Assembly (NCBI GenBank): GCA_951406725.2
Contig: OX597816.1
Span: 49,786,001-49,850,000, forward strand
Direction of reading: 5' to 3'
Source: Octopus vulgaris
Lineage: Eukaryota
Length of the DNA stretch: 64,000 bases
Positions 10,861-22,328 of this stretch are shown piece by piece (position 1 is the first letter of the stretch; the number at the start of each line of letters is the position of its first letter). Below the pieces are notes generated by a model. It did not search any database. It had not been told where the DNA came from and worked only from the letters and a program-made list of their open reading frames with translations. Position numbers and translations under genes: made by a program.

Positions 10861-11311
10861 CTTACTTTGATACTTTGATAGGTTTCGGCCATTATTGGCC
10901 CAGGCCATGTCTAACTTAATAGCACCACCTGGTGAAGTCTTTCAAGTCAGAATTTGGGCACTATGGCCCACTCAAGTAGAGAGTTATTGTTTACAGAGAC
11001 ATATCCGGGTGTAGGGGGTTTATCCGGGATTTCTTGAAGGAATCTGTCCAAAGACTTCTTGAACCCTATAGGGTCAGTTTCTGTTTTAATGTGTTTTGGT
11101 GTAATGTTAAAGAGAGCAGGGCCAATTGAGGTGAAATAATTGTGCCGTATTGTTGTTATGAGATGAGAGTGCGATTTTTGTTTTGGGCGGATGGCACGGG
11201 GCCCAAGCCTTGGATGTACCTTAAAGGTGATGCCAACATCATTTGGGCAATGCTGATGGAATATTTTCCACATCATGCAGATGATGTAGCGCTCACGACG
11301 ACGTTGGAGAG
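10861..11311 (-). mobile_element. Short 5'-truncated CR1/L2-group LINE, family B (copy B)
   Basis: ORF 10947-11435 C-terminal part reads [19 protein letters not shown]...[20 protein letters not shown], homologous to the end of ORF 11755-13236. The 3' UTR is followed by a (TATCAAAG)2 tail. Both ends lie in (TA)n. Confidence 0.95.
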
Positions 11312-11666
11312 AATATATATTTATATATATATACATATTTATATATATATATATATATATATTATATATATATATATATATATATATATATATATATATA
11401 TATATATATATATATATATATATATATATATACATATTTATATATATATATATATATATATATATATATATATATATATATATATATATATATATATATA
11501 TATATATATATATATATATATATATATATATATATATATATATATATATATATATATATATATATATATATATATATATATATATATTTATATATATATA
11601 TATATATATATATATATATATATATATATATATATATATATATATATATATATATTTATATATATA

Positions 11667-14468
11667 TAACTTAGAATAACTTAGAAAGGTTTTTGGCCAG
11701 TATTGGCCCAGGCCATGTCTAACTTAATAGCACCACCTGGCGAAGTCTTTCAGTTCAGGATTTGGGCACCAAGGCCCATTCGAGCAGAGAGTTATTGTTT
11801 GCGGAGACATATCCGGGTGTGGGTCGTTTGTCCGGTACTGTTTGAAGGAATTTGTCCAAAGACTTCTTGAATTTTGTGTGGTCAGTTTCTTTTTTGACGT
11901 GTCCTGGTGTAATGTTGAAGAGAGCGGGTCCAATTGAGGTGAAATAATTGTGCCGTATTGTCGTTATGTGATGCGATTTAGATTTTTGTTGTGGACGGAT
12001 GGCACGTGGTCGAAGCCTTGGATGCATTTTGAAGGTGATTCCAACATCATTCGGACAGTGCTGATGGAATATTTTCCACATCATACAGATAATGTAGCGT
12101 TCACAGCGTCGTTGGTGTGAATACAATTTCAGCTTCTCTAGTCTACCCCAGTAGTCAAGGTCTGACATGCCATCTATCTTTTTTGTGATTGACCTTTGGG
12201 GAGCTTCAATTCTCATAATATTTTGTTTTGTGTAGGGAGACCACAGTTGACAGCAGTATTCAAGGTGGGGTCGGGCAAAAGTGGAGAAGAGAAGGATAAT
12301 AGCGTGGGAATCTCTCGACTGGAAGGTTCTGAGAATCCAGGAACACATTCTGCGGGCCATGTCAACTTTGCTGCTTATATGTGTAGCCCAGCTCATGTTG
12401 TTGTCCACTGTTACTCCCAGGTCTCTGATGTTGTTGGATGCCATGAGAATTTCTCCAGAAGGAAGAGAGTATGGGAGTTTCAGAGCGTCCTCCCTTCCAA
12501 AGTGGATCAGTTCGAATTTGTCTTCATTTAGCAACATGTTATTCTTTTCCGCCCATTGGACAACAGCCAGTGGGTCTGACTGAAGGTTTATTCGGTCATC
12601 CACGCCATTGATGACCTTCTGGAGCCTGGAATCATCAGCGAAGGTTCTGATGTTACTGTGTTTGATGGTGTCAGTAATATCATTTATGTAGATGATGAAG
12701 AGAAGTGGGCCCAACACAGTGCCTTGTTGGACACCACTGCTGACTTTGGCTGGGCTGGATTTGACTCCTTCGACTACAACATGTTGGGTTCTGTTAGACA
12801 GGAAGCACTTGATCCATTGCAGTAGCTTTCCAGTGACACCAATATTGGACAGCTTTCTCAGAAGGATCTTATGATCAACCCTGTCAAAGGCCTTGCTGAA
12901 ATCAAGGTAGATGACATCAGTGTTGGAACCTTCTCCCAAGGCTCTCAAAATGTCATCAAAATGATGCAGTAGCTGCGTCAGGCAATCTCTCCCATTACGG
13001 AATCCATGCTGGTTGGGGTTCAGCATATTATGACTCTCAAGGAAGTGAGTCATACGCGATCTCAGCACCCTCTCAAATACCTTGATGATATGAGAGGTGA
13101 GTGAGATTGGACGGTAATTCACGGCAAGCGATTTGTTTCCTTTTTGAAAACTGGGACAACAGACTGGGATAGAAGGTCTTCTGGTATATATCCAGCATCC
13201 AGTGAGTTCCGCCACAGATTGGCTAGAGGGGTGCAAGTTGGTTTTGACACATCTTCAAGACACAAGCAGGGAACCTATCGGGACCTACTGCTGAATTATG
13301 CTTCATTTCCTTTATTGCTGCTAAGACATCAGGATTGCCAAATGTTATGTCCGATAAAGTGTATTGGGGAGTAACATCTCTGATACAGCCCAGATCAGTC
13401 ATATCAGGATTGCTGAAAACAGAGCAATATTGTTTCTGCAATATCTCTCCCATGGTTTTGGCATTGTCTTGAAGAGTACCATTTTCATCAATCAGAGGGC
13501 CAACAGTAGAACCAGTGACTATGTGTTTTTTTGCAAATGAAAAGAACACTTTGGGATTGAGTTTGATCTTCTCAATGGCCCAGGCCTCTTCAGCTCTTCG
13601 CTGACTATTGATGATAGACATCATGTTGCTTTGGAGTTTATGTTTTTTAATCTCTAGCGACGAGATGGCAGTCAGGTTGGTGTGTTGCTGTTGACAGTAT
13701 TTCAGCATGTTGATCTTTTTGTTGATTCTTTTAATTTTCCTTATGAGAGATTTTCTATTTCTAGGGATTCGACACTTAGATTTGTTTGCAGATCTTAATG
13801 GGGTGTGTCTTGCACATATGTTCGTGATGGTGTCTACAAGTGACTGCCAGGACTTTTTGATGTTAGTGGGTGTGTATGTGTGCGTGAAGGACCAATCGAC
13901 TTGTGCAAGATCATTATTGATCGCTTCCCAGTTTGCATTGTGAAAATCCATAGTGTCAAATGGATGAACAGGAGGGATGACATTTGTTTTGCATTTTGGC
14001 CAGTGAAATCTCAGATCACAGAGAACCATGTCATGGTCGGAGAGTAGGGTTTTCTCCACTGCAACATTGTGGATAGTATCAGTGTGATTGCTGAAAATTA
14101 AGTCTAAGACGTTTTTGTGACATCTCGTTGGTTCGAGTACCAGTTGGGACAAGAAGAAGTCATCCATGAAGTCAAGAAGCGATTCCACTGCCTCCCTGTC
14201 AGGGGTTGAGAGAAAGAACCTGGCGGCAGACTGTTTGTAGACCAGTCAACCCCGGGAAGGTTGAAGTCTCCCATCATTAAAATGTTGTCAGGTTGACACT
14301 GCTGAATGAAACACTTTATGCTGTTGAGGCATTCCTTGAAGCATGGTAGGGGCGTTTGGGGTGGTCTGTAGAGCCCAACTACTGTTAAGTTGTTGGTTTG
14401 ACTGAATACAGCGACTGCTTCGCAGTATCCATTGCAAAATATGTTCATGGCTTCTGTTGAGAATGAAT
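11667..14468 (-). mobile_element. CR1/L2-group LINE, family B (copy C), 5'-truncated within the APE endonuclease
   Basis: EN motifs YRPP, MGDFNLP, LDLIF and SDHD are present. RT motifs NYRPISLTS, QHGFR, YLDFSKAFD, GVQQGTVLGP and FADD are present. The tail is (TTCTAAGTTA)2, and the copy is flanked by (TA)n on both sides. Confidence 0.97.
11755..14448 (-). pseudogene. Frameshifted ORF2 (APE endonuclease + reverse transcriptase) of copy C
   Basis: ORFs 14104-14448, 13223-14188 and 11755-13236 are consecutive pieces of one pol-like protein, with frameshifts near 14190, 13230 and 13140. Confidence 0.92.
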
Positions 14469-20052: not shown

Positions 20053-21273
20053 TATATATATATATATTTATATATATACATATATACATACATATATATA
20101 TATATATATATATATATATATATACACTTATATACATACATATATATATATATATATATAATATATATACATAATATATATATATATATACATATATACA
20201 TATATCTATATATATATATACATATATACATACATATATATATATATACATATATACATACATATATATATATATATATATATACATATATATATATATA
20301 TATATATATATATATATATATACATATATATATATATATATATATATATACATACATATATATATATATATATATATATATATATATATATATATATATA
20401 TATATATATATATATATAATATATATATACATATATATATATATATATACATATATATATATATATATATATATATATATATATATATATATATATATAT
20501 ATATATATATATATATATATATATATATATATATATATATATATATATATATATATATATATATATATATATATATATATATATATATATATATATATAT
20601 ATATATATATATATATATATATATATATATATATATATATATATATATATACATATATATATATATATATATATATATATATATATATATATATATATAT
20701 ATATATATATATATATATATATATATATATATATATATATATATATATATATACATATATATATATATATATATATATATATATATATATATATATATAT
20801 ATATATATATATATATATATATATATATATATATATATATATATATATATATATATATATATACATATATATATATATACATATATATATATATATATAT
20901 ATATATATATATATATATATATATATATATATATATATATATATATATATATATATATATACATATATATATATATATATATATATATATATATATATAT
21001 ATATATATATATATATATATATATATATATATATATATATATATATATATATATATATATATATATATATATATATATATATATATATATATATATATAT
21101 ATATATATATATATATATATATATATATATATATATATATATATATATATATATATATATATATATATATATATATATATATATATATATATATATATAT
21201 ATATATATATATATATATATATATATATATATATATATATATATATATATATATATATATATATATATATATA
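20053..21273. repeat. (TA)n array between convergent LINE tails
   Basis: Seen directly. Confidence 0.97.
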
Positions 21274-22328
21274 TGATTGATTGATTGATTGATTGATTCT
21301 AGTTTCAGCTTATGAGCTGTGGCCATGCTGGGGCACCGCCATTTGGTGTTGCTACTTGGTTTCACTTCATGGAGGCTTTCTAGCAACTGCTATTTGGTGT
21401 ATGAGAGAGTTCGATGCAGCTGCCCTCATCTGCCCCTCCTGCCGTGAAGTTGGTTCATCTGGGACACCTGACAGGAAGAGATCCAGCTTCATTTTAAAGA
21501 CATCTGTATCCACCCCATGCAGGTCTCTCAGGTTCTTCGGGAGGATATTGAAGAGCTGTGGGCCTCGGAAGCCCAGGCTATCACAGAATCTTGTCCTACA
21601 TCTTGATGGCAGGTTTGGAGTCCTAGGCACCACGCAGTGGCGCCCAGTTCTAGCATTTGCGTAACTCTCGATGCCAAATTTCAGGACACTTCCCTCCAGG
21701 ATCTTCCAGATGTATATTATGGCATATCTTTCCTGCCTACGCTCCAGGGAATATAATTTTAATCTCTTGAGTCTTTCCCAGTAGCTTACATTCTGCATAG
21801 AGGCTATCTTCTTCGTGTAGCTTCGTTGGATCGCCTCAAGTTCTGTGATCAACTTGACACTGGATGGTGACCATAGCTGAGAGCAATAGTCAAAGTGGCT
21901 TAGGACAAGTGTCTTCCAGAGGACCATCATGGTTTCTTGTTCTCTTGTTCTAAAGGTTCTAAGAATCCATCCAGCCAGCCGTCTACATTTCATTGTCAGT
22001 TTAGCAACATGTACATGAAAGGTCGCGTCATCACTCATGTGAATACCCAGGTCACGCACTGATTGTGCCTCTGGGATCGCAATCCCTCCGGGTCCAGTGT
22101 ATTCATTGGGTATTGCATTCAGTTTTGCATGCTGATAGTATAAAGCTTGAAACTTTCCAGCATTGAAATCCATGCTATTCTTTTCAGTCCACTTGTACAT
22201 TTCGTCCAGCTCACATTGCAGGTGTTTAGTGTCCTCAGGGTTCTGTATTGCCTGTGAAACTTTTGTATCATCTGCATAACTTGTGATCGTGGCTCTCTGC
22301 GTGGCTGAGGCATGTCTGAGGGGGCCAT
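21274..22328 (-). mobile_element. 5'-truncated family A LINE (copy F) with open frame from YADD to the C-terminus
   Basis: ORF 21367-22395 reads [10 protein letters not shown]...IAVARKPP. It has an (AATC)n tail, and both ends lie in (TA)n. Confidence 0.97.

Follow-up and report, generated by a model that had tools for sequence, protein, structure and literature searches.

The microsatellite-targeting elements listed in PMC3812793 comprise Waldo (target ACAY) and Mino (AC) of the R1 clade, Kibi (TC) and Koshi (TTC) of the Tx1 clade, and Dong; in that list a TA target is given solely for Micron, a miniature inverted-repeat transposable element (MITE). The same source calls the choice of microsatellites by long interspersed nuclear elements (LINEs) poorly understood. 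PMC4640811 assigns most target-specific families to the early-branched, Tx1 and R1 groups; of the groups with an apurinic/apyrimidinic-type endonuclease (APE), it names R1 and Tx1 as those for which specificity is reported most. Here we analyze a 64,000-nt stretch of the Octopus vulgaris genome (assembly GCA_951406725.2, contig OX597816.1, positions 49,786,001 to 49,850,000; hereafter the window), in which five LINE copies of the APE type, B to F, follow one another in a chain with (TA)n arrays at both ends of every copy. This chain of related copies is real and non-random, and a strict specificity encoded in the endonuclease is possible.

The octopus copies resemble Waldo and Mino as well as Kibi and Koshi in that elements with an APE and a reverse transcriptase (RT) have a simple repeat on both sides. 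They differ in their self-complementary TA target and in their CR1-like appearance, with tandem tails and a stringent 3' hairpin; moreover, they are known from one window (five of five copies), and the partner-type short interspersed nuclear element (SINE) does not follow TA. The CR1-like label is our assumption from motif and tail features, and membership of the CR1 group (CR1, CR1-Zenon, L2, Rex1, Crack, Daphne) is likely, as a candidate assignment from sequence. With Dong/R4 in (TAA)n, Togen in (TG)n and some HERO elements, the copies share the microsatellite landing site (PMC3812793, PMC4640811). The endonuclease that PMC4640811 describes for those elements is C-terminal and restriction-like, whereas C and E carry an N-terminal APE. 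In plants, TA microsatellites harbor the DNA elements SaTar, MuTAnT and Micron as well as florendoviruses; PMC5907723 describes non-nested, microsatellite-joined chains of unrelated elements for plant Mu-like elements, and a TA target is reported in PMC4486113 and, for florendoviruses, in PMC4241990. These plant cases concern DNA transposons or viral DNA, whereas the chain described here consists of retrotransposons in an animal. A repeat annotation of O. vulgaris, whose main text holds no target-site analysis, counts 13 CR1 families as recently active and gives them 787 near-full-length insertions (PMC13282606). Mollusc SINE tails are reported to match CR1 and CR1-Zenon 3' ends (PMC4758252, PMC11481361), CR1-Zenon itself being described as scarce in cephalopods (PMC10294476), and B, C, E and F likewise share their 3' end with a SINE. 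In the literature searched, with Repbase/Dfam notes, subscription papers and supplements outside the search, we found no report of TA-targeting LINEs of the CR1/L2 group.

An earlier note on this window had delimited copies A to F, and its coordinates were reproduced within 2 nt. Copies and arrays are arranged as follows.

1895-2884, plus strand: copy A, error-rich inverted duplicate of F and of F's 5' flank
10054-10860: (TA)n array that flanks B on its 3' side and contains TT variants
10861-11311, minus strand: copy B, 451-nt 5'-truncated LINE of the B/C family with a short 8-nt tandem tail
11312-11668: (TA)n array between B and C
11669-14470, minus strand: copy C, 2.8-kb 5'-truncated LINE with partial APE endonuclease, RT and a 10-nt tandem tail
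14471-15703: (TA)n array between C and D
15704-16545, minus strand: copy D, 842-nt decayed 3' fragment of a family older than, or sister to, E/F
16546-16952: compound (TA)n/TACA array with a 38-nt higher-order unit, its motifs resuming beyond E
16953-20052, plus strand: copy E, 3.1-kb 5'-truncated LINE with the whole ORF2 region (APE and RT) and single-letter frameshifts
19988-20036, plus strand: candidate 3' recognition element in E, two hairpins followed by a GAAAC-type motif, common to E, F, B, C and an abundant SINE
20053-21274: (TA)n array separating E and F, whose 3' ends face each other
21274-22328, minus strand: copy F, 1055-nt 5'-truncated copy of the E family with an open frame and an (AATC)6 tail
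22329-23980: (TA)n array, 5' flank of F

B to F are 5'-truncated copies of APE-type retrotransposons lacking long terminal repeats (non-LTR) from one lineage. Their 3' ends are intact and carry tails of (AATC)n, (AAAATC)n or 8-10-nt units, none of them TA, and their 5' truncation is variable. In the 30 nt outside each of the 12 junctions of A to F, TA/AT steps make up a fraction of 0.72-1.00, which bears out the earlier claim that both junctions of every copy lie in (TA)n. For B to F this amounts to 10 of 10 junctions, and none of these copies is nested in another. Copy A has the same 5' end as F and is 91% identical to it, with 24 gap openings and 63 gap letters. Window positions 1-2900 align in inverted orientation to 21250-24300, with 84% identity across 3026 columns that extend into unique flank, the unique flank on the A side (1-213) matching 23999-24233 in reverse, and the 100-N gap at 9286-9385 separates A from F. 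A had been suspected to duplicate F, and this inverted match confirms it; because the match extends into unique flank, A is ruled out as a sixth insertion, which leaves five independent ones. Both orientations occur, as the earlier note had said, but four copies lie on the minus strand and one on the plus strand once A is excluded. Copy E, in turn, cannot count as full-length, since a contig of the public run X9 extends 40 letters upstream of 16953.

At least for B and E, the TA arrays are likely older than the insertions, because variant motifs cross these two copies, the tails are not TA and the 5' junctions show microhomology. The two sides of B have 9 and those of E 14 non-pure 14-mers in common, against none with the reverse complement. 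Target-site duplications are indistinguishable from array repeats, motifs recurring on both sides of B and E. At the 5' junctions, 4 nt of B (judged against C) and 3 nt of F (judged against E) are identical to the flank, letters that the longer copies carry too; this agrees with the annealing type of 5' joining as set out in PMC4245944. The junctions look like genuine retrotransposition junctions, and the earlier proposal of insertion into pre-existing TA arrays stands on the crossing motifs, the tails, the microhomology and the absence of nesting. Within the array at 22329-23980, the variant polarity switches from TG to CA near 23160, giving a large imperfect inverted arrangement.

For the chance tests, the LINEs were cut out and the stretch 9386-64000 was used, with the local block chosen after the fact. 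Of the 46,305 positions in this stretch, 14.9% have TA on both sides; the share is 66.8% for the local block (9,405 positions) and 1.7% for 27-64 kb (36,840 positions), the block holding 91% (6283/6903) of all such positions. Five uniform insertions that all fall in TA and stay un-nested have p 5e-5 over 9386-64000, and p 0.034 within the TA block when LINE bodies are counted as targets. Of the motif-weighted site models applied to the five insertions, TATA (p 0.25) and TATATA (0.44) fit, and the bare TA dinucleotide fits poorly (0.014). The chain is non-random, yet it does not separate recognition of arrays from a bias for short sites.

Both long copies encode the APE at the N-terminal side (PF14529/PF03372) and the RT (PF00078) downstream of it. 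In copy C, which has two frame breaks near 14245 and 13250, PF14529 was matched at 2e-6 and PF00078 at 3e-29. The E endonuclease, aligned to L1 ORF2p via the profile, has the motifs NIRG, TETH, YRPP, GDFN, LDL and SDH; among solved structures, L1 ORF2p and next R2 are nearest to the RT. A restriction-like endonuclease was not found at the C-terminus, the C-terminal frame of F giving no Pfam family, and C and E bear the N-terminal APE. The isolated E endonuclease piece had no PDB sequence match. Its hairpin-loop region is shorter than that of L1, no R1 or Tx1 endonuclease having matched for comparison, and among 233 related proteins no (IY)n-type run was found, which is a weak test. The window copies B to F are without open reading frame 1 (ORF1).

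Nucleotide identity is 95% between E and F, 85% between B and C, and 67% between D and E/F; the C and E proteins are 39% identical. An RT tree built on 50 of 227 rows puts C and E on distant branches of one 25-row clade (support 100/98), and FastTree gave the C/E clade a support of 1.0 on all 227 rows. The protein rows were chosen by likeness to E and are thus a biased sample, and both trees are made up of unnamed relatives only. By these comparisons, the two families are deep branches of one APE-LINE lineage. The earlier distinction of two families plus an older subfamily is borne out by the C/E and D divergences, but as branches of one lineage they are weaker as independent evidence. The two families also share the double hairpin at the 3' end. 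Three of the five pairs of its second stem are changed on both sides; in the hairpin alignment 92.5% of cells are paired and 8 cells are changed on both sides, 0 of 500 shuffles scoring as high, for a structure derived from the very sequences on which it was scored. One lineage with shared 3' hairpins makes a single inherited TA trait likelier than two origins.

Beyond the window, Argonauta hians supplies the closest named proteins, with 56-58% identity for E and 61% for C, and C has relatives in the ctenophore Mnemiopsis leidyi (46-47%). From scans of metagenome and genome contigs, the best 80 of 460 and the best 80 of 296 relatives were fetched. Members of the C/E clade among these 160 loci are L008, L081 and L083 only, and only L081 has a readable 3' junction. 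Viral contigs yielded no relatives, and in sets of 5, 44 and 401 genomes no further close member of the lineage appeared among the matches listed. The relative L083 has an ORF1 (L083:2-1552, P0121) with a cysteine-rich N-terminal finger followed by tandem CCCH-like fingers, which gave a strong Atlas lead and no Pfam hit; CCCH is not named among the ORF1 types in what PMC4120745 sets out on the Jockey superfamily. LINE contigs of animals turn up in many of the prokaryote genome bins behind L081-L160, and a single 17.8-Mb Metamycoplasmataceae bin accounts for 151 matches, which points to heavy host contamination.

We think it an even bet that this lineage prefers to nick or to prime at short TA-alternating sites, of which long arrays supply hundreds. 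The preference is best read as a bias and not as exclusive microsatellite specificity. Such an insertion would begin with the ORF2 protein binding its own RNA through the shared double hairpin, and the endonuclease would then nick inside a TATA-like run. The short tandem tail (TA or AT occurs in that of B, of C and of D) could pair over 1-3 nt with the nicked strand and prime reverse transcription; tail repeats have been proposed to help site choice in RTE elements (PMC6007223, for these elements). The truncated 5' end would finally be joined by microhomology. Each insertion would divide an array into two that are still usable as targets, and as LINE bodies would be poor targets, a non-nested chain would result; tolerance of insertions in the TA block may further raise their density.

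A SINE that has its 3' end in common with these LINEs is present in 27-64 kb. The earlier note had reported no copy of either LINE family there, and a six-frame profile search, tblastn with 121 proteins and blastn likewise gave none; the statement thus holds for the LINEs, but not for their 3' end. Three SINE-type copies lie as follows.

28063-28128, minus strand: short 3' fragment with the SINE-type 3' end, a 9-nt TA run past its tail and (TA)30 at its 5' junction
52376-52792, minus strand: least diverged SINE copy, LINE-type 3' end, 3' flank of (GA)n and then unique DNA
61634-61961, minus strand: SINE copy whose 3' end is shortened and adjoined by a long TA array

Several observations weigh against a TA preference of the lineage, and the SINE supplies some of them. 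Among the 3' flanks of its eight copies, one is a long TA array, one a 9-nt TA run and six are neither, so that the two TA-flanked copies do not clearly exceed background (p 0.06-0.07). Seven aligned copies match the majority of the rest at 75-92% identity, and three of the four with the least divergence have a non-TA 3' flank. Two comparisons speak for the short-site bias, each within limits. In L081, the one other lineage member with a readable 3' junction and from another host, a B-like tail is followed by TATAT and then by unique DNA, but this is a single case and TATAT is common in AT-rich DNA. A related family outside the C/E clade has a TA run of at least 9 nt at 1 of 17 distinct 3' flanks, although the hosts of this control are different ones, and TA runs near its copies amount to 1.2%. 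On the opposing side again, copies C, D and F have no variant motifs common to both flanks, and array polarity is unlike across F. No single phase within the TA unit is kept by the 3' junctions, where tail and array have 1-3 nt in common. No endonuclease feature that would account for a TA bias was found in these proteins. The sample is five insertions in one block picked post hoc, and growth of the arrays after insertion may inflate or distort the background. The loose ends of public-run contigs described next belong to the same side.

Contigs of four of 24 public runs (X1, X2, X16 and X9) were aligned to E with 18 letters of TA-type flank per side. With 41,967, 22,187, 12,159 and 42 aligned contigs, respectively, the family is high-copy, and depth increases toward the E-family 3' end. 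Contigs passing the ends of the stretch number 87 (X1), 125 (X2), 95 (X16) and 0 (X9); they fit TA-flanked copies but could also be unrelated repeat contigs. Behind 20032, loose ends of 42 contigs in X1 and 40 in X2 (median 14-15 letters) have a consensus that crosses the (TCAA)n tail and goes on in sequence lacking T/A alternation. The tables cover 22 of 2437 loose-end rows and summed depth does not measure copy number, so they yield no count of flanks; they cut both ways and hint at non-TA flanks. Long, high-copy X9 contigs lie about 2% apart from E, one with 16 differing letters plus 3 gaps over 1104 and another with 15 plus 2 over 662. The E frameshifts coincide with single-letter indels relative to many contigs. 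In one X1 contig, 63 E-family letters at window positions 19424-19488 are swapped for a 14-letter AT repeat, possibly left behind by a repair or template-switching event that involved TA DNA.

The earlier note had supposed that the endonucleases recognize or nick TA arrays, possibly as cruciform or melted DNA. The same data bear on the stricter view that they recognize long (TA)n itself, as sequence or as extruded structure, in the way of Waldo/Mino, Kibi/Koshi and Dong with their own repeats, and with nearly all genomic copies TA-flanked. All 10 junctions in long arrays agree with it, the contigs of X1, X2 and X16 that run beyond TA-type flanks could as well, and no loose end falls at 20050-20053 among the rows shown (2415 more exist). 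Five of five copies in the block is also what it would predict, as the block has 91% of the both-sided TA positions. The tail of the SINE is unlike that of E, and it may be mobilized by a sister family rather than the E family. Against strictness speak the SINE, non-TA in six of eight copies, the short TA run of L081 (5 nt), the non-TA consensus of the loose ends, the possibly unrelated nature of the end-passing TA contigs and the lack of a fixed phase. We regard strict specificity as unlikely, and a TA bias of some strength, the short-site and the strict-array readings taken jointly, as probable.

The chain could also have arisen with no endonuclease preference at all, from fragile arrays that break and capture retroelements or from a gene-poor, low-recombination block that retains insertions. 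Precedents have been proposed, namely endonuclease-free capture at TA repeats for florendoviruses (in PMC4241990) and passive accumulation for Drosophila Waldo-A/B (in PMC3812793). In the window, all copies lie within 11.5 kb, a segment with TA flanks at 67% of its positions; at 25452 an array is likewise bordered by a Tc1/mariner-type element, and the 15 pure TA runs of 27-64 kb (913 nt, one of 414 nt) are without a LINE. On the other hand, all five 3' ends are intact with tails, as target-primed reverse transcription predicts, copies are not nested (p 0.034), and this lineage alone makes the chain, though SINEs and a presumed R4-type LINE are in the window. Passive accumulation thus seems rather improbable to us. 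Stitching of separate loci via their TA arrays during assembly would be in line with the noisy inverted duplication of F as A, close to a gap, with the single-letter indels of E at its frameshifts and with the polarity flip near 23160. Yet no gap interrupts the stretch from B to F, the copies differ from one another in sequence, tail and point of truncation, array motifs cross B and E, the 5' ends show microhomology, and a mosaic joined at TA would still require every copy to be TA-flanked. As the source of the chain such a mosaic is very unlikely, whereas for the order of the copies it is possible. Non-LTR elements are a known source of microsatellites according to PMC3812793, and the arrays might accordingly have grown from 3' tails after insertion into ordinary DNA. 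We rejected this as barely conceivable, for the tails of (AATC)n, (AAAATC)n and 8-10-nt units are not TA, the 5' junctions are TA as well, and motifs are common across B and E.

If a CR1-like lineage is indeed TA-biased, its two divergent families, its young copies and a SINE partner whose tail is different would make it possible to tell endonuclease choice apart from tail-target pairing. It would also explain part of the layout of LINEs and microsatellites in octopus and the poor assembly of such blocks. More speculatively, and with more doubt than confidence on our side, an old and widespread CR1-like lineage (in Argonauta and, for C, in Mnemiopsis) may have an APE endonuclease directed at (TA)n, the first outside R1/Tx1 in the literature searched, and build non-nested chains in octopus from which the SINE partner is exempt. 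If so, the exemption of the SINE would implicate the RNA tail in target choice. With a merely passive bias, the chain would be an ordinary repeat cluster.

The window has a GC content of 30%, abundant simple repeats and, with the 100-N stretch at 9286-9385, a single gap. Upstream of the gap, positions 1-9285 are an error-rich contig end, with 1-2900 as an inverted copy of 21250-24233 and, at 5078-6480, what has the appearance of very noisy TACA-type array sequence; the whole is likely assembly residue or an uncollapsed haplotype. Immediately past the gap, a direct repeat of about 170 nt (96%) occupies 9386-9555 and 9876-10047. The Tc1/mariner-type DNA transposon at 25452-27072 has inverted ends of about 215 nt (89%) and a transposase remnant (PF01498); its left end directly adjoins a TA array (24431-25451), and 19 nt beyond its right end there is a TA run of 31 nt. 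A decayed LINE on the minus strand at 52860-54173 (R4-type copy at about 52860-54110) bears CCHC and restriction-like endonuclease motifs, from which we take it to be R4/Dong-like; its 5' junction holds a run of (TAA)n, and on its 3' side lies a SINE. Finally, a 176-nt unit occurs as three tandem copies at 56688-57218 and as one single copy elsewhere, at 28728-28924, and is probably a second SINE-like family.

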